A stretch of 64,000 nt of DNA from a virus (taxonomy: Duplodnaviria; Caudoviricetes). The notes beneath the pieces were generated by a model that saw only the letters and a program-made list of their open reading frames with translations, did not search any database and was not told the DNA's origin. Within the stretch, counting starts at the first letter, position 1; every line of letters starts with the position of its first letter. Shown in pieces: positions 318-61,413 of this stretch. The DNA is taken from positions 964-64,963 of the IMG/VR virus record IMGVR_UViG_2634166501_000001, one strand, 5' to 3'. Both the position numbers and the translations under genes were made by a program.

Positions 318-579
318 TTGCATTTTTTTTCAAACCAGCATATATTTCGTTTCGAGGCGTCAGAACCTCATAACATAAGCGGATCACACCAACCCCGTAA
401 GCGTTGGCTTTTTTGTGCCTGTCGTTTGAGCACAAACCCCACCATAAGTCTATCTACAGAATTATGTTGGGAGGGCGACGAATACAATACCCTTCGGGGA
501 AATAAGTCCGCGGTTTCTTATGTGCCGTTCTGAACCTCCCAGCACCTTAATTTCAGAAAAAATCATAAGGATATCCAGC
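318..579 (+). promoter_or_regulatory. C4-type antisense control cassette A (divergent type)
   Basis: TTGCAT-17-TATATT promoter; b1 TCAGAA (360), a1 CATAAG (374); terminator 389-415; b2 TCAGAA (553), a2 CATAAG (564) over the RBS. Confidence 0.7.
465..544 (+). ncRNA. C4-like antisense RNA A
   Basis: Closing stem TGTTGGGAGG/CCTCCCAGCA, TTCG hairpin, CTTATG (517) and TTCTGA (528) complementary to flanking a/b sites. Confidence 0.7.
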
Positions 580-648
580 ATGTCTACACAGCTTACCTTT
601 CAAGGCGTTTGCCTTAACCTATTGACAAAGCGCCTAGTTCGGGGCTAA
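580..648 (+). pseudogene. Stub of Bro-N-like antirepressor (MSTQLTFQGVCLN...) interrupted by cassette B
   Basis: RBS plus ATG; N-terminus resembles MTSALTFQNT of the Bro-N genes at 9103 and 39809; runs into the cassette B promoter and stops after 22 codons. Confidence 0.55.
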
Positions 649-891
649 CCTTTAAGGGCACTGGCAAAATCCAGTGCCGGACTCCTACTCCGAATATTCA
701 AAAGGCGCATGTCGCCAACTTCACGTTGGTTTTTTTATGCGTAAAATCCGCACATCTAAATTATGGTGAGCTGGATGAGGCTAGCTTCGGCTGGGCCGTT
801 TCCTTTTGAGCGGTAGTAGGATCCTTGTCCAGTTCACCACCTCAAATCCTACTGTTAGTGGTGAACTCCAAACGATCAAAAGGAGCTTCAC
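622..891 (+). promoter_or_regulatory. C4-type antisense control cassette B
   Basis: TTGACA promoter, GCACTGGCAAAATCCAGTGC hairpin, b1 TCCTACT (683), a1 TCAAAAGG (698), terminator 715-736, b2 (847), a2 (876) over the RBS. Confidence 0.85.
764..840 (+). ncRNA. C4-like antisense RNA B
   Basis: TGGTGAGCTG...CAGTTCACCA closing stem, CTTCGG hairpin, a' CCTTTTGA (802), b' AGTAGGA (815). Confidence 0.85.
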
Positions 892-1503
892 ATGACCACA
901 TTAATCAGTCCAATTGCATCAGCAAAAACATCCGATCTGGTATTTGTTTCTCAGACAAATGAATTAGTTACAGATTCTTTTCATGTTGCTAAGTATTTTG
1001 GCAAGCTTCATAAAAATGTTTTGCAAAAGCTACAGCAGCTAGAGTGCTCGCCAGAATTCACAAAGCTAAATTTTCAGCTTTGCCATAAAAACAATGAGTT
1101 ACAGAACGGAAAGCTTCAACCTTTCTACCAAATGACCAAAGACGGCTTTATGTTCTTGGTGATGGGTTTTACAGGCAAACGCGCCGCAGAAATCAAAGAG
1201 CGCTACATCAACGCCTTCAACGAAATGGAGCAGAAACTGGCAAACAACCAGAAGAAGCTACCAGAACCACAAACCCCAGTACCTTCAATGACACGAGTGA
1301 TGCTTGTTATCGAGAACGGCCAAACTGTGGAAGCAAAACACATTCCTAATGATGCCTTCGTTGTCAGTAAAAGCAGGATTGCCAACCTCATAGCAGAGCC
1401 GGGCATATTCACCATGCAAGAAATGGCGCAAATCTCAGAGGCGGTGAACAAACAAATAGTCGAGATTGCTGTAAGCGCCAGCCGATCTATTGCAAAGCAC
1501 TAA
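892..1503 (+). CDS. Rha-family regulator/antirepressor with shared C-terminal domain
   Basis: Rha motifs VAKYFGKLHKNVL and YQMTKDGFMFLVMGFTGKRAAEIKERYINAFNEME. Confidence 0.9.
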   Translation: MTTLISPIASAKTSDLVFVSQTNELVTDSFHVAKYFGKLHKNVLQKLQQLECSPEFTKLNFQLCHKNNELQNGKLQPFYQMTKDGFMFLVMGFTGKRAAEIKERYINAFNEMEQKLANNQKKLPEPQTPVPSMTRVMLVIENGQTVEAKHIPNDAFVVSKSRIANLIAEPGIFTMQEMAQISEAVNKQIVEIAVSASRSIAKH

Positions 1504-1531
1504 TACACTTCGCTTGTTTTCTTCAGAACGA

Positions 1532-1555
1532 AAAGCCCTCCAGATGGAGGGCTTT
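1532..1555. terminator. Bidirectional intrinsic terminator
   Basis: AAAGCCCTCCAGATGGAGGGCTTT between convergent genes. Confidence 0.75.
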
Positions 1556-1573
1556 AGTGCGATGCTTTAAGAA

Positions 1574-2032
1574 TTAAGCAATTTGCAGTGACTCTGTACG
1601 ATGCCACTTACCATCGCCACATTCTTGAAGTACGAGGTTTTGCTGTGAATTATCAATATCAGCATCAGCAAGAGCTTCAAGCATCAATGCGATATGACTT
1701 TCTTTGTTGATAGACTCTCTATATATAGCTCTAAGCAGTACATCTTGCGGACGCGAAATAGGCGTTTCGCCTTTTTCCCACCTTGCAATTGTCTGTCTAT
1801 CACAAAATAGTAGAGTTCCAAGAGCAGATTGAGACAAATTAAGCTCTTTCCGCAGAAATTTAAATTGTTCTTTAGATAACCATGCACTTTGCTCACATAT
1901 TGCGTTAGCAATTGCTTGATGGATACCTTCAAAGTCATCAAAGCTGACGAACTTTTCGCCATCTTCTTCTTCAATTGTGTATCCATTCTCAAGATAGACG
2001 TTATCTAAGCCACACTCGGTATAATGGTACAT
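1574..2032 (-). CDS. XRE-HTH antitoxin (HigA/MqsA-like)
   Basis: YHYTECGLDNVYLENGY N-terminus; HTH FKFLRKELNLSQSALG...TIARWEKG. Confidence 0.8.
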   Translation of the reverse strand: MYHYTECGLDNVYLENGYTIEEEDGEKFVSFDDFEGIHQAIANAICEQSAWLSKEQFKFLRKELNLSQSALGTLLFCDRQTIARWEKGETPISRPQDVLLRAIYRESINKESHIALMLEALADADIDNSQQNLVLQECGDGKWHRTESLQIA

Positions 2033-2044
2033 AGTGAGTTCTCT

Positions 2045-2401
2045 TCAAGTTACGTAGACCGTGATAGTCTTAGCCGAAGGGTCAATGTCAACAGCATTGA
2101 GCCGGAGAATTACCGTTATGGATTCACCTGCACTGACACCTCTAAGCTGGCAAGTATAATCACCTTGCTTAGCTTCTTCGTTTGGCCCTTCGACCATAGC
2201 TGTTCTTGGGCTCTTCAACACATTAAAAATATCTCGCGTTGAAATGCGTCTCTCCAGCATTCTTTCTTTTGTATGCTGACCTATCCTAATCTTTGATGGA
2301 TGTGAGGTAGCCAGTTCATTAATAAGTTTCAATGCAGTTTTAGACGTTAATGGGCGCTCTAAAACTGGTGAGATTTTTTTACTATTTGGCATATAGACCA
2401 T
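2045..2401 (-). CDS. DUF4258-like (RelE/BrnT-fold) putative toxin
   Basis: HTKERMLERRIS motif, terminal ITVYV, directly upstream of the HTH gene. Confidence 0.7.
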   Translation of the reverse strand: MVYMPNSKKISPVLERPLTSKTALKLINELATSHPSKIRIGQHTKERMLERRISTRDIFNVLKSPRTAMVEGPNEEAKQGDYTCQLRGVSAGESITVILRLNAVDIDPSAKTITVYVT

Positions 2402-2502
2402 TCCTAAATATGCCGTGTTTTCTTCTTATGTCACGGCAATGGTAAGTAAGTTGGGTTGGGTAGCATAGTTCATACACATTTCCTTCAATTCAATCTCGGT
2501 AT

Positions 2503-2685: not shown

Positions 2686-5600
2686 TCAATCAAAATAAGG
2701 ATTTACCCTCTTAACCGCCGCTGCAACGATGGCGTTTCTCTGCTCAATTTTACGGTCGATACGCTTTCGCTTTTCTTCTGCAGTCAGTTCTTTTGAACGC
2801 ATAATGAGATCGATTTGGCTATTTAGCTGCCTAACCTGTTTTTGAGTTTCCTTCAGTGGCTTCCTTGCATTGAGAATTTTCCCTCGATCTTCCATCAATT
2901 CCCTAGCCCGCTCAAAACGGCCGTCCTTTCTGTACTCGTTCACCGTTCGATACAACTCTTCTGCTTCTCGCATCATCTTATACATATCATCGAGATACTT
3001 TGTTGAGCGAGCACGATCACTTCCTTGATAAACGGATTTAATCACGAGCAAATCCTGAGCTTTTAGGGCAGGTTTTGCACCGTAATCCCCCATCTGTCTC
3101 GCTACATAATCACTCATCCATAAAGCGTAGCTACCTACCGTTCCTAAATATCCATTGAAAATGTGTTCCAGTTTTTTCGGTGACATTCCGGTAAGCTCAC
3201 CAATCTCGCGCATGGTGATCGACGTCCGCTCGTTATACCTCGCCTCTGGCATCATGCTCAAATCGGCCATATTCTCAATGGGCTGACCTCTGAACATGGA
3301 ATAATTAAAGTATGCTTCAACCAGTGGGTTTACTACCTGAGGAACAGGGTTAAGCGCGAATGTGCTCACTAGGTTTCGACCAAATGCATTGCGCAAATCT
3401 TCCATGCTATCTTCATAGAATGCTGCATTGACTATGCGCTCAGGGAAAGTGCCAAATAGCACACCAATTTCGAACGGCTTGGGAACGCGCCAATGTTGAT
3501 CGCCAAACCAGAAATGCCAGTTCATGTCCTTGTCCCAATCAGGCAGCTCTTGGTAGCGCTCATCGTTACCGTTGATAAGTACGAGAGCAACGGACGCTGC
3601 CGCAATCATACCTCCGCGCTGTGCAATCTGGACTGAGTTCGCTTTGGCCTCTCTGGCCAGTTTGCCTAGGCCCTGCAACCGCGCGTTAAAAAACGGCAGC
3701 ACATCACCTAAGAACATGGCAACTTTGCTATTCCCATGCAAAGAGAAATCCATCAAGTCTTTTGCTTCAAATACCGCTTGAGCTTTTGTTTTGCCTGCTT
3801 TAATTGCGGCTTCATAAACGGCCTCACGGCTAGCATTTTCAAGTCCTTCTCCGAACTCAATGTATTTATCCCAGCCCTTACTCAACGCTCCCATCAACTG
3901 AGATTTATCGGTGATCAACGAGTTTTGGTATTTGCGAATGTCAGCCTCACTCAACCCTTTGCGTTTTAGGGCTTTCCTTACGCTGTCTGCCATCGCCTGC
4001 GGGTCATTTCCGTTGACATAGCCGCCAAGAAATGAAGCCCCAGAGAACATCATATCTAAGGTTCCACCCTCTTTTTTAAGGGTCTTCCCTACCCCCCTGA
4101 ACGAATCAACAATTGGCGTGAAGCCATCTTTGCTGATGGCCCAAGAGGATAGCGAGTCTCGCAGGAAGTTCCTGAGCATAAAATCAGGTGACACCGTCAC
4201 TGTTGAGGTTAACAACCTTTTTGCACCTCTAGCCACCTTCATGAATGGATGATTGGTCCTCTCCATGTCGATTTGAGTCATCGCTCTGAAAAGATCGGCA
4301 TCTGCAACTTTAACCAAGTAGTCCTCTCCCTCTACTTTTACGTGCACAGCATCTGCCGCTTTAAACTGCATCAAGTTCGGCTTCGGTACCACTTCGATAA
4401 GATCGGTGTCAGCAAGGTTATAAACCACTTTCTGCATTGCCATATTCTTCATTGAGGCATCAACCAACTTACCTGTGTTAATGAAGATGTTTTCCAGAAT
4501 GTCGTTTACGTTCTTATCAGAACCCTTGAGCTTTTTGATTTGAGCACTTTGGTTTGCAATCCCTCGCCCTTTCCATGGGCCGATAACGGAATCCAGACCT
4601 TTTTCATTGGCTTTATCATCTTGTCGATAGAAAGGAACGTACCACTCACTTTCCCATTCATTGCGGCTGTCTTTATCAATCAATCCCGCGTCTTGAGCTA
4701 AATCGAGCAACGCCTTGTTCATAGCATTGTATTTTGCTTTCGCCCGCTTGAACTCATCTTGCTTACCCTCACCGAGCAGGAGTAGTTCATTGATTTCATC
4801 CTCACTGAGAAGGTTCTCCCTACCCTGTGTTTTTAACTGCTTCGCTCGATTACCTGCCATCCATGCAAGCCAATTGTGTAAATCCTTGCCTAATTCATCA
4901 AAAATACCGAGCAGACTATCTGCCTCTCCGGTATTGTCTCGTTTCTGAATGATGCCATCTTTCCATTCTGGGATCCCGTAGAGCATCACGGCTTGCATAA
5001 CCGATGACGATCCCGCGGCCAAACGCGCAGCTACATAACCACTATCTTCCGCGTTAGTAATTCCCGCCTTATCTTCCGCGTACTTAATAGGGGCTAACCC
5101 ATCAAACCAGCCAGTATTGACGCGCTTCATTCTCTCTTGAAAGAGTTCAAACCACTCCGCTTTGCTTTTGCCTACCAGTTCCTTGGTGAATTCTTTCGCA
5201 AGTTCTGCTTTGGATTTTTTTGGGCCAAGGCCAAGTTTTTCAGCGAGTTCAGGGGTCAACGTTTGCTCTTTGACTTTTCTGGAGAACTTAAGATCTTCAC
5301 CTTTGGTATTGTTCGAAACGCCTTTGACGGCTTTGTCCTCTATGGATACACTTTTATTGGCTTCCGCAACTCTGCTAGTATTGTTATCGGGTTCTAGGGG
5401 AAGTAGGCGCGGCCCTGAATCGTTGCCACCGGAAGCGATAACCTCTTCTTTACTCGGCTGTTCATTTTTTGAAAATAAAGTCTGAGAAAGTTTTGTCTCA
5501 ACATTCTGCGCCTCTGGGCGAGTTCGGTCTTTCCATTGATTAACAGATTTAATGCGGTCGCTCAGCGTTTGTACAATGTTGTACATTTCTGCCTTAGTCA

Positions 5601-8409
5601 TATCACTATGGTTCATTAAACCAACGCGACGCAAGGCGTGAGCTATCAATTCAACAATACTATCAAACCAACGCTTAATTGCTGGACGCTCAATTTCCGC
5701 AGCGTGAGCAAGCACCTCTTCGACTTGGTATAGTGGCTCAAAACCTTTGTAATTTCTTTCAACGGTATCCCACAGCTCTTTGAGATATGGTGAATTTTTA
5801 CCACGTGCGATACGCTCCATGATCTTCATGTATTCCATATCGCCAACCACCGCGCGAAGCCCGTGATGTACCAGTACTTCATGACGAAGTTTATGACGCA
5901 GATCTTTGGGGCTTTCGATGTTGTCAGCAACGACCACCGCAAGCCGTTTGGCATCACTGTAAAGCGCGCCAACCAACGCCCCTTCGAACCTTGCCCCCAT
6001 GATTGCCTCTGCCTCTGCTTGAGTTTTTACCACTTTGATATCCACACCCGCGCCGCCTTTGTAGGTTTTTAACCATTGATCGGCGGCTAGCTCCGCTTCT
6101 TTTATGGCCATTCCTTTGGCTGGCACATGAGATAAAACACTTTCTCGACTAAATGAAATGGCTTTTTCTCTAACTCCAAATTCTTCCTGCAATTGCTGGT
6201 GAGCTTGTCGGTTTATTGACTCAGGCGTATCACTGTTGAGCTGTTGATACTGTTCAAATGGTAACTGTGCCAAGGCAAGGTCGTAGTTGCTTTCATACTC
6301 GGTTTCAAGATCACTCATCGCCTTAGCGTAACCAGGCGAGCTCTCTTTTAAGCCCTTCGCTTTCGCCATCTTCTTTAAATGTTGTTTTTTTGAGGCTCTG
6401 AGTATTTCCGGCAGTTCTACTTTTTGCTCTACGGCTGGCAGGTTCTCCACATCGGATTGTAGGCTTTGCTGTAATTGAGGCTCGGTTGGTTCCAATGGTT
6501 CTGGCGGTACTGCTAGGTTTGCGTTTTCTGACTCACTTTTACCTTTTGGTTGAAGCGGTTTCGTTAATTCAGGCGTAGTCGTTTCCTCAGCATAACTATA
6601 AGCGGGCTCTCCATTTTCAATCTGATCGCCTGCTGAGGAGGCTACTGCATTCTCTCCAGCCTCCTTAGCTTGAAAAGTGGGCACATCCTCTTGCGGCAAA
6701 GCGACTTCGATTGACGAAAGGTCTGACCCTTTAGGTTCTTGCTCAGGCTGAATAGATGCCGGTTGAGGAATATCTTGGCTCATTTCATTTGGGGATTGAC
6801 TGGATGCCAATGCCCGAAATTCCTTAAGCAACTCTATTTTTTCTGTCGTTGTTGTATTTTTGCTTTTAAGGGCCTTAATGATCTGATGGCTCCGATTGGG
6901 ATCGGCTTGCTCGGCGGCATACATCATGGCTTTAAACTGTTCAGTAATGCCATCAGCCTGAGGCTCACTTGCTACCGTCTCTTGCGCGTTGAGAACTTGA
7001 TTGCCATCATCGGGTTGTGGAACCTTTACCTCTGGTTGCTGTATCGATGGATCCTGAGACAACGGCTGGCTTACTGGCGCATCTTCATCACCACGCAGTT
7101 GCGCGCCTAAGTCAGACATCACAGGGGCGATCTCTTCAGGGATTGGAGTAGCGCCTTCTGGCATAGTTTCAGAGGCATTATTTTGGGCTTCGTTAGATGA
7201 ACTTCCACGCAACTGAGAAGCAAGCTCGTTAACCACTTCGCTTTGATCGTCGGGGATAGGCATTTGTTCAGGAGCCAAATCAGAGCTCTCGTTTGCATAG
7301 TGCTTGCCTCGGTAACCACCAATAGCACCCGGTACGCCACCAACGATTGCGCCGATGGTTCCCCCCTCTGCCGCCGCCGATTTCACCCCGCTCCAAGGGT
7401 CTATATTTGTGCCAGCGACATCATTGAGAATCTGATTTTGTGAGTAAGTTTGAGTGCCGGACTCCAGTGCTTCTGTGCTTGCCTCCGTTGCCGCCCCTTT
7501 CAGTGCGCCGCCAGTGATAGATTTGCCTAGTGTGCCGGTGATTGCATTGAACAGAACCTTATCACCCAAGGCGCTCGCTGCGCTTGCTGCAATCGCTTTT
7601 GGATCACTGCTCATTTGCAAACTTGCATGGTTCGCGGTTTCTTCTTTGGCTAAATCGAATAGCTCGGTGGCACTTAAGTTTTGATTTTCTGGATGATCGG
7701 AAACTCGCATTAGTGCATCGCGAAAGAAATCAGAATTTTCGTAGAGCCAAGCAGAATCCATATTCATCACGGCGTCACGCGCATCCATACTCGCGCCGCC
7801 AAGTGAGGCACCAAACCCAGCACCAGCCGCACCAGTAGCAGCGATACGTTTAATCGCCTTATCAGCCACCGCCTGCGCAACTTCTTCCGTTAGCCCTTTT
7901 TTCATCATCGACTTGGTTATCGTACCGCGTAGAAGCGTTTTTGCTCCTGCCCCAGCGACACCACCACCTGCAAAAGTCGCAGCCCATGATCCTATAGCGT
8001 TTGCTGCCTTTATAGCCCAAACATCAATATCACCTGCGCCATTTCCCAGCCCCATCCCAAAAGGACCGTTACCATCTTCGGTGTACAGCTCTCTCGTCAT
8101 GGCTTCTTGGGCGTCAGGAGTCATGTTTTCTTGTAGGTAATCCGCACCTGAGGTTGCTACATCACGCAAGCTTTCGCCAACGCCCAAGTAATTCTCGGCA
8201 AGTTCACCTACCCCAGCAATGCTTCGTAAAGCGCCGCTGCCTGCCGCTTTTACATAATCCATTCCAGACACATCGAGATCTTTTAGAGGCTCAGACGAAT
8301 GTTTAAACGTGAAGCCTTCCGGCAAAAATGGCTCTTGGCTCATGTCGGTTTTTGCATTCACCGTCGCTTTTGAATTCATGTTTTGTCCAAGTAACTGCTT
8401 ATCTTGCAT
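2686..8409 (-). CDS. Large polyvalent internal virion/ejection protein (zincin-like domain, LPD38-like C-terminus)
   Basis: About 1900 aa; Gly/Ala-rich N-terminus, HEVLVHHGL motif, YQELPDWDKDMNWHF...RVPKPFEIG region; RBS GGAG before ATG 8409. Confidence 0.8.
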   Translation of the reverse strand: MQDKQLLGQNMNSKATVNAKTDMSQEPFLPEGFTFKHSSEPLKDLDVSGMDYVKAAGSGALRSIAGVGELAENYLGVGESLRDVATSGADYLQENMTPDAQEAMTRELYTEDGNGPFGMGLGNGAGDIDVWAIKAANAIGSWAATFAGGGVAGAGAKTLLRGTITKSMMKKGLTEEVAQAVADKAIKRIAATGAAGAGFGASLGGASMDARDAVMNMDSAWLYENSDFFRDALMRVSDHPENQNLSATELFDLAKEETANHASLQMSSDPKAIAASAASALGDKVLFNAITGTLGKSITGGALKGAATEASTEALESGTQTYSQNQILNDVAGTNIDPWSGVKSAAAEGGTIGAIVGGVPGAIGGYRGKHYANESSDLAPEQMPIPDDQSEVVNELASQLRGSSSNEAQNNASETMPEGATPIPEEIAPVMSDLGAQLRGDEDAPVSQPLSQDPSIQQPEVKVPQPDDGNQVLNAQETVASEPQADGITEQFKAMMYAAEQADPNRSHQIIKALKSKNTTTTEKIELLKEFRALASSQSPNEMSQDIPQPASIQPEQEPKGSDLSSIEVALPQEDVPTFQAKEAGENAVASSAGDQIENGEPAYSYAEETTTPELTKPLQPKGKSESENANLAVPPEPLEPTEPQLQQSLQSDVENLPAVEQKVELPEILRASKKQHLKKMAKAKGLKESSPGYAKAMSDLETEYESNYDLALAQLPFEQYQQLNSDTPESINRQAHQQLQEEFGVREKAISFSRESVLSHVPAKGMAIKEAELAADQWLKTYKGGAGVDIKVVKTQAEAEAIMGARFEGALVGALYSDAKRLAVVVADNIESPKDLRHKLRHEVLVHHGLRAVVGDMEYMKIMERIARGKNSPYLKELWDTVERNYKGFEPLYQVEEVLAHAAEIERPAIKRWFDSIVELIAHALRRVGLMNHSDMTKAEMYNIVQTLSDRIKSVNQWKDRTRPEAQNVETKLSQTLFSKNEQPSKEEVIASGGNDSGPRLLPLEPDNNTSRVAEANKSVSIEDKAVKGVSNNTKGEDLKFSRKVKEQTLTPELAEKLGLGPKKSKAELAKEFTKELVGKSKAEWFELFQERMKRVNTGWFDGLAPIKYAEDKAGITNAEDSGYVAARLAAGSSSVMQAVMLYGIPEWKDGIIQKRDNTGEADSLLGIFDELGKDLHNWLAWMAGNRAKQLKTQGRENLLSEDEINELLLLGEGKQDEFKRAKAKYNAMNKALLDLAQDAGLIDKDSRNEWESEWYVPFYRQDDKANEKGLDSVIGPWKGRGIANQSAQIKKLKGSDKNVNDILENIFINTGKLVDASMKNMAMQKVVYNLADTDLIEVVPKPNLMQFKAADAVHVKVEGEDYLVKVADADLFRAMTQIDMERTNHPFMKVARGAKRLLTSTVTVSPDFMLRNFLRDSLSSWAISKDGFTPIVDSFRGVGKTLKKEGGTLDMMFSGASFLGGYVNGNDPQAMADSVRKALKRKGLSEADIRKYQNSLITDKSQLMGALSKGWDKYIEFGEGLENASREAVYEAAIKAGKTKAQAVFEAKDLMDFSLHGNSKVAMFLGDVLPFFNARLQGLGKLAREAKANSVQIAQRGGMIAAASVALVLINGNDERYQELPDWDKDMNWHFWFGDQHWRVPKPFEIGVLFGTFPERIVNAAFYEDSMEDLRNAFGRNLVSTFALNPVPQVVNPLVEAYFNYSMFRGQPIENMADLSMMPEARYNERTSITMREIGELTGMSPKKLEHIFNGYLGTVGSYALWMSDYVARQMGDYGAKPALKAQDLLVIKSVYQGSDRARSTKYLDDMYKMMREAEELYRTVNEYRKDGRFERARELMEDRGKILNARKPLKETQKQVRQLNSQIDLIMRSKELTAEEKRKRIDRKIEQRNAIVAAAVKRVNPYFD

Positions 8410-8425
8410 GGTTTTCTCCGGGTAT

Positions 8426-8498
8426 AAAAAAAGCCCCACCCGAAAGGGTGAGGCTTGGCACTATGGGTAAATCATACCCCGATTTTTGGTGAATGCTA
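8426..8498 (-). promoter_or_regulatory. pR'-like promoter plus immediate terminator (copy 3)
   Basis: TAGCAT-16-TATGAT with CCAAAAA..GG spacer, then CCCAT and hairpin AAGCCTCACCC/GGGTGGGGCTT-T7. Confidence 0.6.
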
Positions 8499-8506: not shown

Positions 8507-9103
8507 TCAATGTGTAGAAATAGATCGGCTAGCGCTTACAGCAATCTCGACTATTTGTTTATTCACGGCTTCGGAGATTTGCGCCATTTCTTGCATAGTA
8601 AAAATGCCCGGCTCTGCAATTAGGTTGGCAATCCGGCTTTTGCTGACAACGAAGGCATCGCTAGGGATGTGTTTGGCTTCCACGGTTTGGCCGTTCTCGA
8701 TAACGAGCATGATCCGCGTCATAGAAGGAATTGGCAGTTGCGGTTCTGGTAGTGTTGGTGTGAGGGGCTGAGTTTGGCCTGATTCGGCTTCTTTATCGAG
8801 AATATCCAAAACCCACTTGCGGAATTCTTTGGCTTTTTCAGTTCTAGCGAACATGGCGATGAGATGAGCACCGCGTAGTGAGAAAATACGGGCCGTTTTC
8901 TGATAGTTTCCTGAGAGAGCCAATTTGACCTCCTCAGTCATTCCACGAGTAAACTCATCTGAATTTCTGCGGTAAATACGACTAATAGAATTCGAATTAG
9001 CATAGCCCAATGCCGTAGCTATATCTGCCGCTGCTAGCCAGATCTTGTTTTGTTTTTCGACAACATCAAAGCGAGTGTTTTGAAAAGTTAGTGCTGAAGT
9101 CAT
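8507..9103 (-). CDS. Bro-N antirepressor with shared C-terminal domain
   Basis: WLAAADIATALGY...RIFSLRGAHLIAMFARTEKAKEFRKWVLDIL. Confidence 0.9.
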   Translation of the reverse strand: MTSALTFQNTRFDVVEKQNKIWLAAADIATALGYANSNSISRIYRRNSDEFTRGMTEEVKLALSGNYQKTARIFSLRGAHLIAMFARTEKAKEFRKWVLDILDKEAESGQTQPLTPTLPEPQLPIPSMTRIMLVIENGQTVEAKHIPSDAFVVSKSRIANLIAEPGIFTMQEMAQISEAVNKQIVEIAVSASRSISTH

Positions 9104-9244: not shown

Positions 9245-9436
9245 TTATCCAAGATCTTCACTTTCCGCATAGTACTTCCTTAAACTGACCAGTATTTCCG
9301 AATTAAGAGAGCGTCCGTTCTCTTCCGCTTTCTGTCGGATCACTTCAACAAATTCCGCTGACATTCGTAAATGTACCTGTTTTGCATTCTTTCCTCTCTG
9401 ACCTCTAAGTTGATCAATTCGCATATTTTCTAACAT
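9245..9436 (-). CDS. Arc-family ribbon-helix-helix repressor
   Basis: QVHLRMSAEFVEVIRQKAEENGRSLNSEILVSL; RBS GAGGTG. Confidence 0.85.
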   Translation of the reverse strand: MLENMRIDQLRGQRGKNAKQVHLRMSAEFVEVIRQKAEENGRSLNSEILVSLRKYYAESEDLG

Positions 9437-9461
9437 TTTCACCTCTATCATGATGATGCAT

Positions 9462-9514
9462 TGGAACCAATTTGGTTCCATTGATAATTTAGGACCAATA
9501 TGGTTCCATGTCAA
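9462..9514. promoter_or_regulatory. Two operator palindromes and leftward promoter of the arc/mnt-like switch
   Basis: TGGAACCAATTTGGTTCCA (9462-9480), TAGGACCAATATGGTTCCA (9490-9508); minus-strand TTGACA-17-TAAATT. Confidence 0.7.
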
Positions 9515-9539
9515 CACTAATTTCAATTTTGGTCGCGAC

Positions 9540-9959
9540 ATGAACAAAACACTACAATTCAAACTACGTATTGATGAGGATCTTCACGCAAAGGTTAAAG
9601 CGTCAGCAGAAGAGAACAAATGTTCCGTTAACTCTGAGCTTTTACGCCGAATTAGTGAGTCATTTTCTGAATCAATAGATATCGACTTACCAACTTCATC
9701 AAAGGCTCTAGACGAGTCCAAACAGTGTGCAAAGAATGTCTACAAATATTTCCGAGGTAAGGTCATCGAAGAAATCGACCGAAGAATCAAGCTCGGGAAA
9801 ACGGATGCTTACATCAGCTTTGAAGAACTAGAAATTGAATTTGAAGATGACCCTTTGTTAGACACCGTTATCGAGCCCATCATTAAAGAATTGACCGACA
9901 GTGGCTATTCAACCAACGATTGGGATTTAAGTGGCGTTCTTGTCATGTGGGCTGAATAG
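9540..9959 (+). CDS. Arc/Mnt-family repressor with C-terminal extension
   Basis: QFKLRIDEDLHAKVKASAEENKCSVNSELLRRI; divergent from arc. Confidence 0.8.
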   Translation: MNKTLQFKLRIDEDLHAKVKASAEENKCSVNSELLRRISESFSESIDIDLPTSSKALDESKQCAKNVYKYFRGKVIEEIDRRIKLGKTDAYISFEELEIEFEDDPLLDTVIEPIIKELTDSGYSTNDWDLSGVLVMWAE

Positions 9960-39106: not shown

Positions 39107-39212
39107 TACCACTCCTTGCTCTATACGCAAAGTATAAACAGGAACAACACATTTGCAACTATATTAAGTTGCAAATGACAAATGAACCGCGAAATGACTC
39201 CGCCCCGATAAG

Positions 39213-39809: not shown

Positions 39810-40090
39810 AGTGAACTCCTTGAGTATGATACATAAATCACCACACAAAGGTTCCTAATCAATGGGTGGTGAACTGAACGAGGTTAGGAACTACCGTACT
39901 CAAGGAAACGGCGCGCCGAAGCGCCCTCATCCAGCCCACCATAATTCTATAGGTGTGCCGAAGCCACACACAAAAAAACCAGCAAAACGCTGGCACTTGT
40001 GTGCCTTGAGTTACAATGCGGGGTTCCTACGCCCGACACTGGATTTTGCCAGTGCGAGGTAAAAATAGCTCGGTACATATTGACTGTCAA
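39810..40090 (-). promoter_or_regulatory. C4-type antisense control cassette C
   Basis: Minus-strand TTGACA, CACTGGCAAAATCCAGTG hairpin, b1/b2 TAGGAAC, a1/a2 ACTCAAGG. Confidence 0.85.
39866..39941 (-). ncRNA. C4-like antisense RNA C
   Basis: TGGTGGGCTG...CAGTTCACCA stem; a' CCTTGAGT, b' GTTCCTA. Confidence 0.85.
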
Positions 40091-51779: not shown

Positions 51780-52421
51780 CCGAGTCTGTAAGTTAGAACC
51801 TCGAAGGGAAAGCGCTCATTTGGATGAACAGGTAGAGCTAAGTAATCCTGTTGTGAGTAAGTACCAGATTGGCTGGGGAAAAGCATCTGAACTCTAATAA
51901 CGATGTGCAATATCCGCCTTGTGTAGACCGAGCAAACCGATACCAGAACACACCTTCTCGCGCTAACGTGACAACAGTTGTTCTAACAGGGTGCTGGTAT
52001 CACCTATTTTTAAAGCAAGCTTAGATAGCTGACATTTACCGAAGTATCGGGGTCTGGGGAACGAAAGCTTGCTTTCAAACCAACTGGTTGGATTTGGTGT
52101 TTTTAGCACCTCCAGCGCCAGTGGCGGATAGTGTAACCGCATGACAGCTCGGAAAGACGGCAACTTCCGTTACCAATATTCTATAAGCTCTAGAAATTTG
52201 GCCCTAGTCGGGTGACGACAAAAAACTAAAGTCTGGCTGTGACGAGACCTTCCGAAATGAAGTAAAACTACAGCCATTTAATAAAGTCTTTTGCAAGTGT
52301 TGAGCTTAAGCGGTGTGAATCACTAGAGCAGGTGAGGTGAAAGCCCTCACAACATGCAAAACAAGTTGAATCGCTAGCCCTGTGAGATTCAGGGCAACTC
52401 GCAAAACACTTTTCAAAATAC

Positions 52422-52506
52422 GCCCCGTATGCCAGCACCGGCCTTCTAAGCCGGTACGTAAAAAGCTGGAAGGACGTGAGAGGTTCGATTCCTCTACGGG
52501 GTGCCA
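52422..52506 (+). tRNA. Atypical tRNA-Arg(TCT)-like element lacking a canonical D arm
   Basis: Acceptor GCCCCGT/ACGGGGT-G-CCA; anticodon arm ACCGGC-CTTCTAA-GCCGGT; T arm AGAGG-TTCGATT-CCTCT. Confidence 0.65.
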
Positions 52507-53442: not shown

Positions 53443-54300
53443 ATGATAATGACCAATATTGTGCCATTTGAGGAGCGTCACCCACTTGTCGCACAACGCG
53501 GGATAGACGAGGCCACCTGGTCTGCACTGCAAAACAGTGTTTATCCGGGTGCGAAGGAAGAATCTATCTTGATGGTGACGGATTACTGCCGCGCCCGTCA
53601 CTTAGACCCGCTTCTTAAGCCCGTTCATATCGTGCCAATGAACGTGAAGAACTCACAAACCAACAACTACGAATGGCGTGATGTGGTGATGCCCGGCATT
53701 GGCATGTATCGCATTCAAGCAGATCGCAGTGGTAGCTACGCTGGCTCAACAGACCCAGAGTTCGGCCCACTGATTGCCATGGAGTTTAAAGGTGAAAATA
53801 ACTATTCGGAAATCATCAACATTCCAGAATGGTGCAAAATCACAGTCCATAAACTGATCAATGGCACCTTAGTCGCCTTCTCGGCAAAAGAAATGTGGTT
53901 GGAGAACTACGCAACTGCAGGGAAAAACACCCAAATTCCCAACGCGATGTGGAAAAAACGGCCATACGCACAGTTAGCAAAATGCGCCGAGGCTCAAGCC
54001 CTTCGCAAAGCATGGCCTGAAATCGGACAGCAAGCGACTGCTGAAGAAATGGAAGGTAAAGAGCTCATCATCGAGCACGATGTTACGCCAGCTCGCAATA
54101 CCATCACCGTCAAGCAGTACCCCGCTCAAGACTTCGAAAAGAACTTCCCTTCTTGGCAAAAGAAAATCGAATCAGGCCGCAACACACCTGAACGCATCAT
54201 CGCCATGGTTGAAGCCAAGGGAGCACTAACCGAAGACATGAAACAGCGCCTTTTAAGCATCAGTACCACTCAGGGAGAAACCAATCATGCAAGTCACTAA
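53443..54300 (+). CDS. bet: Single-strand annealing protein (Bet/RecT family)
   Basis: YCRARHLDPL, GIGMYRIQADRSG, MWKKRPYAQLAKCAEAQALRKAWP. Confidence 0.92.
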   Translation: MIMTNIVPFEERHPLVAQRGIDEATWSALQNSVYPGAKEESILMVTDYCRARHLDPLLKPVHIVPMNVKNSQTNNYEWRDVVMPGIGMYRIQADRSGSYAGSTDPEFGPLIAMEFKGENNYSEIINIPEWCKITVHKLINGTLVAFSAKEMWLENYATAGKNTQIPNAMWKKRPYAQLAKCAEAQALRKAWPEIGQQATAEEMEGKELIIEHDVTPARNTITVKQYPAQDFEKNFPSWQKKIESGRNTPERIIAMVEAKGALTEDMKQRLLSISTTQGETNHASH

Positions 54301-56020
54301 CATCCAGTTCCACAACGTTCAGCAAGGCACCGATGAATGGCATGCATTGCGTGAAACCGTCGATTTTACCGCTTCTGAAGTTTCTGCCGCGCTAGGGTGC
54401 TCACCTTATAAAACCCGCGATCAGCTCATGCACGAGAAAGCGACGGGCATTAAGCCAGAAATCAGTAGCTATCAAGAGAAAATCTTCGCCGATGGCCACC
54501 GCTTTGAAGAAATGGCGCGCCCTATCTTGGAAAGTAATCTTGGTGAAGAGCTCTATCCGGCCACCATTACTGGCGAATGCGAAGGGCTTACTCTACTCGC
54601 TTCGCTTGATGGCTTAACAATGGATGGCGACATTGCATTCGAACACAAATCGCCTAATGGAAAGCTTGTTGCCCGAATCGCTGAACGCAACTTAGACACT
54701 CATTATGTTGTGCAGATGGAGCAACAGTTACTTCTCTCTGGCGCGGCAGTCTGCAAGTTTGTAGCAAGTGATGGCACTGAACAAAACTGGCACGAAATGG
54801 ACTACTACCCCGACGAATCAGTACAAAGCTGGATTATTTCAGGCTTAAGGCAATTCAAGTCTGACTTAGCGGAGTACAAGCAAAAACTGGCAAACGGCGA
54901 AATCGCTCAGGAAAGCAAGCCAGTGGTCACCGCCGAGGTAATTCAAGATTTACCCGCCGTCACCTACAAAATGAACGGCCTTGCGATTGTCAGTAACCTA
55001 GACGAGTACAAGGTTAAGGCGTTAGAACTGGTTGAGCAATCCAAAAAGAAACTGGAAACAGACCAAGACTTTGCCAACGCAGAAAGCATGGTGAAGGTGT
55101 TCAAATCCGCCGAAGATAAACTCGGCCTAATGTCACAACAAGTTCTCGGGGAAGTGGAAAGCATTGATACCTTTGTGAAAGACCTTGGCTTTATCAGCGA
55201 AAACATTCGCCAAGCGCGCCTCGCGCTAGATAAACAGGTCAAGTCTCGCAAAGAAGAGATCAAGACTGAACTGGTTATGAAGGCAAAGACTGAAATTCAA
55301 GCCTTAGTTGCTGACATGTCCCAAAAATATAATGTCGGTTTTAACGTTAAGCATGACTTTGCTGCGGCCATTAAAGGCAAGCGCAACATTGAAAGCATGC
55401 AAAGTGCAATCAATGACGAACTGGCCAAGGCAAAAATTGCACTGTCTGAGCTAAAAGATATCGCGCAAACCAACCTAGATACCGTTAATCAGCATAGCGA
55501 ATACCGCTTCTTATTTAACGACTGGGGGCAAATCGCCTTTAAAGCACCGGAAGACTTCGCAACGCTCGTTAAACTGCGTATTGCCGAGCACAAAGATGCT
55601 GAAGAGAAACGCCTTCAAGCAGATCGCGACCGCATCCGCAAGGAAGAAGAAGCTAAAGCGCAAGCCGAAGCCGAGCAAAAAGCAGATGCATTACGTAAAG
55701 AGCAGGAAGCCGAAGATCGCCGCAAAGCGCAAGAGCTTGCAAAGAGCCAAGCCAAAGAGAACGCGGTTGAACAAGCAATGCAGGACATCCCTACCCCTGC
55801 AGACCCAAATCGTATAGCGCATGCTCGCCAGGTATTAGCAACGGCCGAAACCGCCGAAGTGAAACCGTTCACCGTTGCGAACAAAGCGGTTATCACCATC
55901 CCAACCGACGAATACAACGAACTGTTACGCAAAGCCGATTTGCTTGAAGCGCTCTACGCATCGGGGGTCGATAATTGGGACGGATACGGCGAAGCCATCG
56001 CCATGTTAAAAGCGTCTTAA
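54287..56020 (+). CDS. YqaJ/lambda-exo-type exonuclease with long coiled-coil tail
   Basis: QQGTDEWHALR, TASE, ASLDG, FEHK, QMEQQL. Confidence 0.9.
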   Translation: MQVTNIQFHNVQQGTDEWHALRETVDFTASEVSAALGCSPYKTRDQLMHEKATGIKPEISSYQEKIFADGHRFEEMARPILESNLGEELYPATITGECEGLTLLASLDGLTMDGDIAFEHKSPNGKLVARIAERNLDTHYVVQMEQQLLLSGAAVCKFVASDGTEQNWHEMDYYPDESVQSWIISGLRQFKSDLAEYKQKLANGEIAQESKPVVTAEVIQDLPAVTYKMNGLAIVSNLDEYKVKALELVEQSKKKLETDQDFANAESMVKVFKSAEDKLGLMSQQVLGEVESIDTFVKDLGFISENIRQARLALDKQVKSRKEEIKTELVMKAKTEIQALVADMSQKYNVGFNVKHDFAAAIKGKRNIESMQSAINDELAKAKIALSELKDIAQTNLDTVNQHSEYRFLFNDWGQIAFKAPEDFATLVKLRIAEHKDAEEKRLQADRDRIRKEEEAKAQAEAEQKADALRKEQEAEDRRKAQELAKSQAKENAVEQAMQDIPTPADPNRIAHARQVLATAETAEVKPFTVANKAVITIPTDEYNELLRKADLLEALYASGVDNWDGYGEAIAMLKAS

Positions 56021-56032
56021 GCCTTGAAGCTA

Positions 56033-56302
56033 TTGACAAAGCGCCTAGTTCGGGGCTAACCTTTACGTGCACTGGCAAAATCCAGTGCCGGACGTGGAAA
56101 TCCGAATTGCAAGGCGCATAGTCGCCAACACATGTTGGTTTTTTTATGCGTAAAATCCGCACATCTAAATTATGGTGAGCTGGATGAGGCTGGCTTCGGC
56201 TAGGCCGTTCCCTTGTAGCGGTATTTCCACACCTCGTTCAGTTCACCACCCAATCGTGGAAAGTTGAGTGGTGAACTCCTAAAAAATACAAGGAGCCTCA
56301 TC
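56033..56302 (+). promoter_or_regulatory. C4-type antisense control cassette D
   Basis: Same promoter and hairpin as B; b1/b2 GTGGAAA (56094, 56256), a1 TGCAAGG (56108), a2 TACAAGG (56287). Confidence 0.85.
56173..56249 (+). ncRNA. C4-like antisense RNA D
   Basis: a' CCTTGTA (56211), b' ATTTCCAC (56223) in the conserved scaffold. Confidence 0.85.
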
Positions 56303-56911
56303 ATGAACACAGTTTCTACAGCTATCGCATCTGCTAAACCATCCGATCTTGTTTTCGCATCTCAAACAAATCAGCTCGTTACCAATTCAATGAAAGTTGC
56401 TGAATACTTTGGCAAGCAACATCGTAACGTATTAGCAAAGTTAAGATCATTGGAATGTTCCGGCGAGTTTAGGTCTGCTAACTTTTTAGCATACCACCAC
56501 AAGAACGAACAAAACGGTGAAGTTTACCAAGCCTACCAAATGACCAAAGACGGCTTTATGTTCTTGGTGATGGGCTTTACAGGCAAACGCGCCGCAGAAA
56601 TCAAAGAGCGCTACATCAACGCCTTCAACGAAATGGAGCAGAAACTGGCAAACAACCAGAAGAAGCTACCAGAACCACAAACCCCAGTACCTTCAATGAC
56701 ACGAGTGATGCTTGTTATCGAGAACGGCCAAACCGTGGAAGCCAAGCACATTCCTAACGATGCATTCGTTGTCAGCAAAAGCAGAATCGCCAACCTCATA
56801 GCAGAGCCGGGCATCTTCACCATGCAAGAAATGGCGCAGATCGCCGAAGCGGTGAACAAGAAAATGGTTGAAATAGCCATTACCGCCAGCAAATCTGCCG
56901 CGAAACACTAA
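56303..56911 (+). CDS. Rha-family regulator/antirepressor with shared C-terminal domain
   Basis: Close paralog of 892-1503. Confidence 0.9.
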   Translation: MNTVSTAIASAKPSDLVFASQTNQLVTNSMKVAEYFGKQHRNVLAKLRSLECSGEFRSANFLAYHHKNEQNGEVYQAYQMTKDGFMFLVMGFTGKRAAEIKERYINAFNEMEQKLANNQKKLPEPQTPVPSMTRVMLVIENGQTVEAKHIPNDAFVVSKSRIANLIAEPGIFTMQEMAQIAEAVNKKMVEIAITASKSAAKH

Positions 56912-58526: not shown

Positions 58527-58584
58527 CCGCTTATCTTCACTTTTCTTTAAGCCCTCACCCGAGGGCTTTTTAAGGTAACGACCA

Positions 58585-59420: not shown

Positions 59421-59427
59421 GGTACCC

Positions 59428-59652
59428 ATGGGAAACATTGTAAAACTTACCGATATTGGCGAGAACGAAACGCTGATTGATTATGCGGTTCGCAAAGAAG
59501 AAGAATGCAACGAGCACCGTATTACCATTGCGAGCCTACGTGATTGGATCCACCAAATCGCCGTTAACTCAGGTAACGAACAATTCATCATTGACGCGAC
59601 AGGAGCTGCACTCTCAGGAGAAGAGTGCAACCAGCAAACTGAGTTTAACTAA
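59428..59652 (+). CDS. Small hypothetical protein
   Basis: RBS GAGG. Confidence 0.55.
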   Translation: MGNIVKLTDIGENETLIDYAVRKEEECNEHRITIASLRDWIHQIAVNSGNEQFIIDATGAALSGEECNQQTEFN

Positions 59653-59690
59653 CCCAGCTTAAAAGGCATAAAACAAAGCAAGGGGTCCGA

Positions 59691-60146
59691 ATGAATACAC
59701 TTAACATTCCAACCACCAAAGGCCGTGCAGATGTTCCGGCCTTTTTTGTTGATGGCGTTAGCGCATTAGCAATCACTATGACGAACTTTGGTCTTTTTGA
59801 AGTTACGCACATCAAATCTGGGCACAAGATCATCGGTGGTTTTGAGCGCTTTGCCAATGCAGTTGTTGAAATGCTCTCACTACACCTAGCGATGCACGAA
59901 GCGGGGATCGACTTTGACGCTGAGCACGACGAGTTCAAGCGCCAAGTTAAAGAGTCGTCAATCAAAAGTGAGCACATTTCTGGGCTAACTCTGGTCGAGC
60001 ATCTTCAAATCATGCGCCCAATCATGGGCTTTTCTGGAGAATTCCCGTGGGAAGGCGAGGAAGAAAGCCCGCACACAAAAGCTTCTCGGCTCATTGCAAA
60101 AATTAATGAGCTTAATGGTGTTAAGCGGGTTAATGAGCAAGCATAA
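59691..60146 (+). CDS. Hypothetical protein
   Basis: 151-aa ORF in the early operon. Confidence 0.6.
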   Translation: MNTLNIPTTKGRADVPAFFVDGVSALAITMTNFGLFEVTHIKSGHKIIGGFERFANAVVEMLSLHLAMHEAGIDFDAEHDEFKRQVKESSIKSEHISGLTLVEHLQIMRPIMGFSGEFPWEGEEESPHTKASRLIAKINELNGVKRVNEQA

Positions 60147-60258
60147 GCAACACCGACGCCCAAGCAGAGATCAATTTAAGCGCATGCCAAAAATAGGCAA
60201 AGACAGTGACGGAATGATCGTCGTTCGATGCAACAACTTCGACAGAGTGTGAACGCCA

Positions 60259-60957
60259 ATGAGCAAGAAAAGACAATTAATCTGGAGTAAATCCGGAGGA
60301 AAGTGCTGGTACTGCGGATGCGATCTACCACAAAAAGGATGGCACGCCGATCACTATTATCCGATAGTAAGAAAGCTTGAAGAGAACAAGAACAAGCACG
60401 GTATGGTTATTGGGTATAAAACTGGTAAAGAGTGTTTATACCCAGAGTTGGACTGTGTAGAAAACCTAGTTCCTGCATGTGCTCCATGCAACAGCTTTAA
60501 ATCATCACTACCACCAGAGGCTTATCGCTCTCTAATTCAAGATCAATTTGTAAATACCATTAAGTACTCTACAGGACTAAGACAGTTAAATCGGCTTGGT
60601 CTAGCTGACTTATCTCCTAAGCCAGTTGTTTTTTGGTTTGAAAAGCAAGGCATTGCAATGCCAGCTCAATGGGATTTGATGGGGATATCTGATGAAGCAT
60701 TATCCATCGAATGGTGCATAGACAAATCAGAGCCAGACTATTACCACCAGTGGATTCGCGGGAGGATGATAACACTACGCCGTATTAGCAATTACTGGCT
60801 AATTATCGCAATAGAAACTAGTTGGGACTCGTCAAATAGAACAGAAATACCAAACGTTTCTGTTGATAAAGCCAAAGCTCAGGCTGCTGAGTGGGCAATT
60901 AGACTGGATAACCAGTTGAAAGAGCAAGAAAGAGAGGCCAAATCAAATGCCAGTTAA
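60259..60957 (+). CDS. HNH endonuclease-domain protein
   Basis: CWYCG...DH...NLVPACAPCN. Confidence 0.88.
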   Translation: MSKKRQLIWSKSGGKCWYCGCDLPQKGWHADHYYPIVRKLEENKNKHGMVIGYKTGKECLYPELDCVENLVPACAPCNSFKSSLPPEAYRSLIQDQFVNTIKYSTGLRQLNRLGLADLSPKPVVFWFEKQGIAMPAQWDLMGISDEALSIEWCIDKSEPDYYHQWIRGRMITLRRISNYWLIIAIETSWDSSNRTEIPNVSVDKAKAQAAEWAIRLDNQLKEQEREAKSNAS

Positions 60958-61126
60958 CACTAAAACCCCATTTTCATCACCTAAGCCATTTTTACCCGTG
61001 ATCAGCTTTAAAGAAGAAAACCCATACCCTCAAGCGAAGAAAGTTCGCCAGGCGGACAGAATCGCAGCTTACGCAAAATCAACGGAGTTGGTTGGCAGCT
61101 TCCTAGAAGGGCTGAAGCACTCTTAA
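60947..61126 (+). CDS. 59-aa hypothetical protein (not in the ORF track)
   Basis: RBS GAGG; MPVNTKTPFSSPKPFLP...EGLKHS. Confidence 0.4.
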   Translation: MPVNTKTPFSSPKPFLPVISFKEENPYPQAKKVRQADRIAAYAKSTELVGSFLEGLKHS

Positions 61127-61138
61127 GCCCTTAACCTA

Positions 61139-61413
61139 TTGACAAAGCGCCTAGTTCGGGACTAACCTTTACGGGCACTGGCAAAATCCAGTGTCGGGAT
61201 TGGTCTCCCGCAATTTTCCAAGGCGCATAGTTGCCAGCTTCTCGCTGGTTTTTTTATGCGCGCGATTCAGCACACCCAAATTATGGTGGGCTGGGTGGGA
61301 GCGCCTCGGCGCGCCGTCCCTTGGAGCGGTAAGACCAATCTCACTCAGTTCACCACCCAATGGTTGGTCTCATTGACGTGGTGATTTACTCATTGCGTTC
61401 CAAGGAGGCTTCT
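61139..61413 (+). promoter_or_regulatory. C4-type antisense control cassette E
   Basis: Same promoter and hairpin; b1/b2 TTGGTCT (61200, 61364), a1/a2 TCCAAGG (61217, 61399). Confidence 0.85.
61284..61356 (+). ncRNA. C4-like antisense RNA E
   Basis: a' CCTTGGA (61319), b' AGACCAAT (61332). Confidence 0.85.

Follow-up and report, generated by a model that had tools for sequence, protein, structure and literature searches.

C4 and IsrK are textbook single-locus switches, and the c4 antisense RNA of phages P1 and P7, which controls icd-ant, was reportedly described by Citron & Schuster in 1990. Small differences in the pairing words define heteroimmunity between P1 and P7, according to the available text of two sources (PMC5320573, PMC12197685). 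In the prophage Gifsy-1, the short RNA IsrK works in trans to open translation of an antirepressor operon (Hershko-Shalev et al. 2016, PMC4825925). The available part of that report adds that a stable downstream RNA depends on the isrK promoter and that the isrK locus lies directly after a Q-like antiterminator gene; it regards IsrK as an activator and does not settle what the C4-like RNA does (PMC4825925). The role of the sar RNA in phage P22 is summarised in the accessible portion of PMC12197685. Here we analysed a 64,000-nucleotide stretch of viral DNA, referred to below as the window, which covers bases 964-64963 of a 64,963-bp IMG/VR provirus (IMGVR_UViG_2634166501_000001; 100% complete by CheckV). 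It carries four complete cassettes that combine an IsrK-type leader with a C4 RNA, together with a fifth whose target gene is truncated, and these cassettes very probably act as translational locks of the C4/IsrK type on antirepressor-family genes.

The original prediction, a model's reading of the sequence, had proposed five C4-type antisense RNA cassettes built like P1/P7 c4, and a search with Rfam models found four C4 RNAs, four IsrK-type leaders and one sRNA-Xcc1-type RNA at these places. The four C4 matches (RF01695) span the full model (positions 1-87) with 60.6-68.6 bits against a cut-off of 45. Three isrK matches (RF01394) lie in cassettes 2, 3 and 4, with scores, in ascending order, of 55.9, 59.6 and 66.8 bits against a cut-off of 50, and the fourth, in cassette 1, reached 48.3 bits in the relaxed-threshold scan, 1.7 below the cut-off. 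The RNA of cassette 5 matches sRNA-Xcc1 (RF02221; 64.8 bits, cut-off 53) and not C4. The c4-a1b1 model (RF03163) gives 41.4-44.8 bits in three cassettes, just under its cut-off of 46.7, and the relaxed-threshold scan of the window brought out no C4-like elements besides the five. The proposed number stands for four complete units and a fifth that is a lock without an intact gene. The cassettes, with their short words a and b (a1b1 upstream of the RNA, a2b2 downstream of it), are as follows.

317-579, plus strand: cassette 5, the apparent orphan lock, with a promoter-like site at 317-346 and an RNA at 466-551 (Rfam RF02221)
360-569, plus strand: cassette 5 words, a1 360-365 TCAGAA (in a hairpin loop), b1 374-379 CATAAG, a2 553-558, b2 564-569 over the ribosome-binding site (RBS)
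About 391-418, plus strand: cassette 5 intrinsic terminator
622-891, plus strand: cassette 1, with -35 element TTGACA 622-627, IsrK-type a1b1 RNA 658-735, terminator 714-737 and C4 RNA 759-844
683-883, plus strand: cassette 1 words, a1 683-689 TCCTACT, b1 698-705 TCAAAAGG, a2 847-853, b2 876-883 over the RBS
39810-40090, minus strand: cassette 2, with -35 element TTGACA 40090-40085, IsrK-type RNA 40055-39973 and C4 RNA 39946-39862
40029-39818, minus strand: cassette 2 words, a1 40029-40023 TAGGAAC, b1 40011-40004 ACTCAAGG, a2 39857-39851, b2 39825-39818
56033-56302, plus strand: cassette 3, with -35 element 56033-56038, IsrK-type RNA 56069-56144 and C4 RNA 56168-56253
56094-56293, plus strand: cassette 3 words, a1 56094-56100 GTGGAAA, b1 56108-56114 TGCAAGG, a2 56256-56262, b2 56287-56293 TACAAGG
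61139-61413, plus strand: cassette 4, with -35 element 61139-61144, IsrK-type RNA 61175-61254 and C4 RNA 61279-61360
61200-61405, plus strand: cassette 4 words, a1 61200-61206 TTGGTCT, b1 61217-61223 TCCAAGG, a2 61364-61370, b2 61399-61405

The P1/P7 architecture that had been recognised in these cassettes, with a1b1, the RNA and a2b2 over the RBS, is borne out by the C4 and IsrK matches. Reading the sequence and a script both place the a+b word pair of each cassette at exactly three sites: upstream as a1b1, inside the RNA as an antisense copy, and downstream as a2b2. One detail had to be corrected, since the words had been given in the order b1, a1 and b2, a2, with a2 over the RBS; the actual order is a then b, with a in a hairpin loop and b over the RBS. 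The b2 word ends in an AAGG(A) Shine-Dalgarno sequence 6-10 nt before the ATG, and exact complements of a2 and b2, 6-8 nt long, are present in all five cassettes; in cassette 3, b1 makes one G-U pair with the RNA and b2 differs from it as listed. The 18-nt hairpin CACTGGCAAAATCCAGTG occurs in four exact copies in the window against 0.06 expected, and none of 100 shuffled sequences reached four. In all cassettes the a1b1 RNA ends in an intrinsic-terminator hairpin followed by a T-run (the terminator scan caught that of cassette 1). The C4 RNAs are tRNA-like and 73-77 nt long, with the 5' GG and 3' CACCACC ends of C4 RNA present in the sequence, and the RNA of the orphan cassette measures 81 nt. 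Promoters are of sigma-70 type and nearly identical in cassettes 1, 3 and 4. The antirepressor-family open reading frames (ORFs) begin 47-53 nt after the C4 RNA, with their own RBS covered by b2, and a leader ORF of the icd or orf45 type was not found between RNA and gene in the cassettes. In the predicted minimum-free-energy folds of the read-through RNAs, the 3' strand of the C4 stem forms a hairpin with a2 in its loop, and in cassettes 1, 3 and 4 a1/b1 pair with the antisense words a'/b' in cis, which fits a role of the upstream a1b1 as a decoy.

The words were expected to differ between cassettes while co-varying within each of them, and the three-site matches, a computed 5×5 matrix of each RNA against each leader and the comparison of the two closest cassettes all agree with this. 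Duplexes of a'+b' with the cognate leader have energies of -18.6 to -23.4 kcal/mol (-13.9 for cassette 5), those with non-cognate leaders -5.1 to -16.5 kcal/mol, and the diagonal dominates the matrix. Between cassettes 1 and 3, identity amounts to 93% over the scaffold columns and to 62% over those of the words (Fisher p = 5e-7); the same contrast is not significant in the distant pairs 3/2 (p = 0.69) and 4/2 (p = 0.18). A scripted search of the whole window for a+b pairs outside the cassettes returned none other than one 6-mer pair match of cassette 5 at 25667-25689. On these grounds, the cassette words are likely to be mutually orthogonal.

That the intact cassettes gate antirepressor-family genes was also correctly foreseen, as all four downstream genes have Pfam or PHROG matches to such families; the family names used here are those annotations. 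A fifth paralogue lies elsewhere in the window.

892-1503, plus strand: Rha-family antirepressor-like gene, 203 amino acids (aa), behind cassette 1 (Pfam PF09669, 1.4e-28)
39213-39809, minus strand: Bro-N antirepressor-like gene, 198 aa, behind cassette 2 (PF02498, 7.7e-15; phrog_5060 Ant, 1.7e-44)
56303-56911, plus strand: Rha-family antirepressor-like gene, 202 aa, behind cassette 3 (Pfam PF09669, 4.2e-29)
61414-62013, plus strand: P22_AR_N antirepressor-like gene, 199 aa, behind cassette 4 (Pfam PF10547, 1.1e-37)
581-649, plus strand: truncated target ORF of cassette 5, 22 codons (MSTQLTFQGVCLN...), running into the cassette-1 promoter
8510-9103, minus strand: fifth paralogue with the shared C-terminal domain, Bro-N, 198 aa (100% identical to protein P0011 by tblastn; Pfam Bro-N)
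9245-9562, minus strand, and 9450-9959, plus strand: two overlapping, divergent Arc-like (ribbon-helix-helix) genes (PF03869, 1.1e-8 and 6.2e-9; PHROG Arc-like)

The N-terminal head domains all score above the Pfam cut-offs (PF09669, 99.7 and 101.4 bits; PF02498, 55.7 and 54.3 bits; PF10547, 129.1 bits). Cassette 5 is best read as an orphan lock whose gene was overwritten, because its ORF stops after 22 codons in the cassette-1 promoter and begins with 13 residues that match the N-terminus of P0015, which is 260 aa long and combines Bro-N, ORF6C and the shared C-terminal domain. No C4 cassette was found before the fifth paralogue, where Rfam gives no match even at the relaxed threshold; the Arc-like gene pair lies upstream of it, in a layout that resembles P22 immI. 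Beyond the stop codon of the cassette-4 gene, the same frame continues through three stops (62014-62490) into an ORF at 62095-62490. This ORF resembles the C-terminal part of an antirepressor (phrog_1726, phrog_7940), and the cassette-4 gene seems to have had its original C-terminal half displaced by the shared C-terminal domain.

An alignment shows that the four locked proteins have a C-terminal domain of 82 residues in common, here called the tail, and tblastn locates the copy of the fifth paralogue at 8510-8752 on the minus strand. Over the last 75 residues, identity among the five paralogues is 84-97% (84% between the tail of the fifth and that of cassette 3), and the heads are 19-23% identical between classes, with 75% between the two Rha heads and 79% between the two Bro-N heads. 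At the DNA level the tails are 79-88% identical. For the tails of the four locked copies, non-synonymous relative to synonymous substitution (dN/dS) is 0.04-0.08 at a synonymous divergence (dS) of 0.55-2.1, and the paralogues are thus old and held by strong purifying selection rather than recent duplicates. In an AlphaFold2 model of the Rha protein behind cassette 3 (56303-56911; mean predicted local distance difference test score, pLDDT, 80.6), the tail consists of a beta-hairpin and two helices that follow a disordered linker at residues 121-130.

The tail is very rare. We found it in 13 clusters among 5.8 billion proteins, attributed by source to Vibrio navarrensis or V. vulnificus and carrying Rha, Bro-N, P22_AR_N or KilA-N heads. 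Among 1.84 billion proteins it occurs in 12 representatives; seven of the ten that were checked against Pfam have KilA-N, Bro-N, P22_AR_N or Rha heads, and the other three are two short proteins (70-76 aa) that stand alone and one protein with an Ig domain, probably matched by chance. Searches of GTDB species genomes returned no tail, and those of IMG/VR one weak match to a head only, in collections that possibly leave out the window's own or very near genomes.

We estimated how common multi-cassette loci are in IMG/VR, in Vibrio and elsewhere, each survey being a sample among the matches listed. Among IMG/VR records with the exact IsrK hairpin (50 of at least 80 loci), 46 have one C4, four have two and none has more, and among loci whose portal protein is 49-88% identical to that of the window phage (50 of at least 79), 40 records have no C4 and ten have one. 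None of these 100 sampled IMG/VR records thus carries more than two. C4 is present in 35 of 151 Vibrio species genomes, where 131 matches, obtained with Infernal's stricter filters, fall into 99 loci of at most 65 kb: 76 singles, 14 doubles, nine triples and no larger ones. In some Vibrio genomes the C4 copies number 13-23. As had been supposed, the number of cassettes in the window phage is unusual for one phage, with no Vibrio locus exceeding three. The accompanying statement that known phages of this kind carry one such locus does not hold as a rule, given doubles or triples at 23 of the 99 Vibrio loci and four cassettes in a region of a Marinomonas chromosome.

In that region, 39 kb hold four C4 matches, of which one scores 44.8 bits and so narrowly misses the cut-off of 45. 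They carry four different word pairs and stand before AntA-like, Rha, KilA-N and Rha genes, in the company of tail, tape-measure and terminase genes and two integrases. The C-terminal parts of the gated proteins are 35-57% identical, and their N-terminal parts 18-29% between classes. Compared with Vibrio, the Rha heads of Marinomonas are 39-45% identical and the tails 17-21%. Words differ widely across 32 cassettes parsed from other genomes, and TAGGAAC and TTGGTCT, the a words of cassettes 2 and 4, recur there with other b words. These word lists are minimum sets, because the regular-expression parser takes exact words of at least 6 nt and misses some cassettes (e.g., Marinomonas 3702364). 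In Vibrio sp. 99-8-1, whose genome has 23 C4 copies, three tandem C4 cassettes within 3 kb each stand before an ORF of 55-73 aa containing ...PDFYQQVEDFILCAVADNS..., which makes for paralogous targets of another kind, again behind locks with differing keys. Multi-cassette loci are common and their words differ; the result named in the original prediction as one that would refute it, commonplace multi-cassette genomes with invariant words, was thus not obtained. Such loci are a recurring pattern, of which the window phage is the richest case seen. The searched open part of the literature holds no description that we could find of several C4/IsrK cassettes in one phage or of paralogous antirepressors sharing a tail. 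The switch itself is known, then, but its arrangement here, with several locks in one phage, is extreme and apparently undescribed.

By analogy with P1/P7 c4 and Gifsy-1 IsrK, the C4 RNA would be processed out of a read-through transcript, as RNase P does with c4, and would pair in trans with a2 and b2, which would block translation. The short a1b1 RNA, as well as the a1b1 segment in cis, would compete for C4 and could in this way open the lock. As every cassette has words of its own, a lock should respond to the RNA of that cassette alone. We consider that the tail carries one common activity, probably directed against the phage's own CI-type repressor, and that this activity stands behind several independent locks as a form of multipartite immunity, a reading to which we would assign a probability of roughly 45-50%. 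The repressor is the presumed target of the antirepressor activity.

45754-46419, plus strand: CI-type repressor, 221 aa, with a helix-turn-helix domain and an S24 peptidase domain (phrog_4, 2.8e-52; LexA/UmuD-like C-terminal part)

Several observations speak for this reading: the tail is the most constrained part and is element-specific; the heads are of a general kind that different genera share; the same head type occurs behind different locks; and the orphan lock is kept intact. If the tail does carry such an activity, one dangerous function would be kept behind several independent locks. A resident prophage would then silence an incoming relative only if it had a matching factor for every lock, and an incoming phage that differed at any one lock would express the activity. 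This would be immunity of the P22 immI or P1 immI kind, multiplied. Cassette 5 would be an immunity-only relic, with an RNA that could still silence incoming genes keyed TCAGAA/CATAAG. The tail itself is a candidate for a previously undescribed repressor-binding module.

Several points weigh against this interpretation. We infer the production, processing and trans-repression of the RNAs. Some cross pairs in the energy matrix are not weak, with the RNA of cassette 2 reaching -16.5 kcal/mol on the leader of cassette 3 and -14.7 kcal/mol on that of cassette 1, and because all b words have an AAGG core in common, full orthogonality is only likely. One of the five paralogues is not locked by an RNA. 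A Foldseek search of the Rha paralogue against the PDB gave nothing at E ≤ 0.001 and only weak winged-helix-like rows, and the shared tail could instead serve oligomerisation or stability as a module, while the targets would be selected by the heads. Homologues of CI are very widespread (2026 matches, mostly in Vibrio) whereas the tail is very rare, so that the two are not co-distributed. Finally, the fourth Marinomonas cassette may belong to a neighbouring element, since it lies beyond the first integrase gene.

The main rival takes the tail as such an oligomerisation or stability module and gives each head (Rha, Bro-N or P22_AR_N) a target of its own, which could be a repressor (for example that of another resident prophage), a DNA site or a host factor; separate locks would release each protein under different conditions, with no combinatorial code. 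The heads do come from different Pfam families, and their conservation across genera, seen in the Rha heads of Vibrio and Marinomonas, fits head functions of their own. The AlphaFold2 model, in which head and tail are separate domains on either side of the linker at 121-130, is also compatible with this, and trans-acting antirepressors that cross-induce other prophages are described in the available text of PMC3121763. Nevertheless, we regard this explanation as unlikely. Rha and Bro-N each occur twice, so that heads are duplicated where locks differ, and the strongest constraint falls on an element-specific tail, as expected of a part that recognises a phage-specific partner. Moreover, distinct regulatory sites were not seen, the promoters of cassettes 1, 3 and 4 being nearly identical.

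Less likely still is neutral mosaic accretion, in which cassette and gene would be mobile modules gained by recombination at conserved promoter and tail sequences, with no collective function and some copies being lost. In its favour, the cassette-5 gene was overwritten by cassette 1 at a junction whose sequence is also found ahead of cassettes 3 and 4, the leaders of cassettes 1 and 3 are 93% identical where the head-coding DNA is 74% identical, a sign of mosaicism, and the original C-terminal half of the cassette-4 gene was seemingly displaced into a separate ORF. The positions of the cassettes, at the prophage end, after Q and in the early-left operon, are moron-like as well. Yet none of the four locked genes is broken, strong purifying selection acts on them with synonymous divergence close to saturation, and all six word sites stay matched in every cassette, the orphan included. 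The design also recurs in Marinomonas, and as doubles and triples in Vibrio, which makes accretion without function improbable. That the RNAs mainly regulate host or unlinked transcripts in trans, with the local a/b sites secondary, is very improbable in spite of the large expressed family of C4-like small RNAs (sRNAs) with differing a' loops in Acinetobacter baumannii, for which the available text of PMC5320573 suggests bacterial targets, and of the high C4 copy numbers of some Vibrio genomes, since each RNA finds two targets in perfect position close by, of which one covers the RBS of the next gene downstream, and the provirus holds no other a+b pair except one chance 6-mer pair.

Taken together, the combinatorial immunity or kin code advanced in the original prediction is plausible. 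With more doubt than belief, we suggest that the temperate phages of marine gammaproteobacteria may use an immunity code that is multipartite and written in RNA, in which a phage-specific antirepressor tail sits on interchangeable heads behind orthogonal IsrK/C4 locks, sometimes with a protein lock, and a match is needed at every lock. Under such a code, locks would multiply and words diversify in an arms race among related phages, and orphan locks would persist as pure defence against incoming relatives; no example seen so far would be richer than the window, which has four RNA locks, an Arc-type lock and an orphan. If this is true, superinfection immunity would be set by a combination of short RNA words and not by the repressor alone, which would explain the rapid heteroimmunity of close relatives and the retention of orphan RNAs. 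The cassettes would also be a natural source of compact translational repressors that are mutually orthogonal and follow known rules of targeting.

The window represents one lambdoid provirus of ~65 kb. Terminase, portal, major head, tail-fibre, CI, Cro-like, O-like, Q-like, RecT and RecE genes are present as a single-copy set, and the right end carries an integrase. An origin of the multiple cassettes in two fused prophages was rejected, because the structural and regulatory gene set is single and CheckV completeness is 100%. Cassettes 5 and 1 lie at the left prophage end and cassettes 3 and 4 within the early-left operon, and cassette 2 is directly downstream of the Q-like gene (40174-40950, minus strand). 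The sources name V. navarrensis or V. vulnificus for the nearest protein relatives. A megablast search of 40000-62000 for relatives among cultured phages gave just one match, of 184 bp, in Vibrio anguillarum phages, and blastn with cassette 3 matched 20 records at one place in each. Control of the cassettes by LexA was rejected, as the window contains no LexA box of the usual consensus CTGT-N8-ACAG; given this and the S24 domain of CI, SOS induction need not run through the antirepressor genes.

Other features were noted along the provirus. Two toxin-antitoxin-like pairs occupy moron positions, one formed by HicA (38858-39130, minus strand) and HicB (38502-38861, minus strand), the other by an MqsA-family helix-turn-helix protein (1574-2032, minus strand) beside a DUF4258 protein (2045-2401, minus strand). 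The RecE-like exonuclease (YqaJ domain; 54287-56020) carries a C-terminal T7 gp5.9-like RecBCD-inhibitor domain at residues 535-572 and, as judged from these domains, is a fusion of a recombinase with an anti-RecBCD module. A 643-aa protein at 10112-12043, encoded on the opposite strand inside the tail gene block, has five PKD/Ig-like repeats and a C-terminal piece like a cellulose-binding protein. The product of 2686-8439 is a virion-associated-looking protein of 1917 aa, whose C-terminal 1100 residues match PHROGs, one of them annotated as a DNA methyltransferase (phrog_15406). A weak tRNA-Sec-like Rfam match lies at 52421-52503 (37.8 bits, cut-off 47); no tRNA was detected in the window by ARAGORN. 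To the left of the window, the first ~950 bases of the record hold an integron integrase gene (TIGR02249, 438 bits, profile positions 3-297 of 315). Considered together with positions 1-320 of the window, this part of the record shows that the last ~18 codons at the 3' end of the gene are replaced at the prophage junction, and the prophage therefore seems to be inserted into the 3' end of intI.

The sRNA-Xcc1 family is integron-associated. The cassette-5 RNA, which belongs to this family by its Rfam match, has the layout of C4, with a stem, two hairpins and a ...CACC 3' end; it differs from sRNA-Xcc1 in standing in a full a1b1/RNA/a2b2 cassette before a truncated Bro-N ORF in a prophage. The C4-like sRNAs of A. 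baumannii AB5075 likewise comprise many C4-type RNAs with differing a' loops in one genome, and they are expressed and apparently processed at a GGW site, as stated in the available text of PMC5320573. Those copies are spread over the chromosome without assigned targets, whereas the copies in the window stand in complete cassettes, each with its own cis-linked target. The immI region of P22 (mnt-arc-ant, sar RNA) is similar in being a second region of immunity that controls an antirepressor, P22 being lambdoid and having an SOS-cleavable main repressor, and the fifth paralogue of the window lies beside two Arc-like genes; in contrast to the one ant gene and one cis-antisense RNA of P22, the window has four further paralogues with C4-type RNAs that would act in trans. 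The isrK-STnc1160/orf45-anrP locus of Gifsy-1 shares the short terminated IsrK, the read-through into a stable RNA and the antirepressor-like gene, and cassette 2 also shares its position after a Q-like gene. Gifsy-1 has this locus in single copy and with a 45-codon leader ORF and translational coupling, whereas the window cassettes have no leader ORF. Another close counterpart is the immI region of P1 and P7 (icd-ant; RF01695, RF03163), where a tRNA-like RNA of ~77 nt with a' and b' is flanked by a1b1 upstream and a2b2 downstream, b2 lies on an RBS and the gated gene is an antirepressor. The window cassettes depart from it in having an intrinsic terminator between a1b1 and C4, and in lacking an icd-like leader ORF, with b2 on the antirepressor gene's own RBS. 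P1 and P7 carry a single unit in a plasmid prophage with the C1 repressor, whereas the phage described here carries four units and an orphan in a lambdoid genome with a CI repressor of the S24 type.

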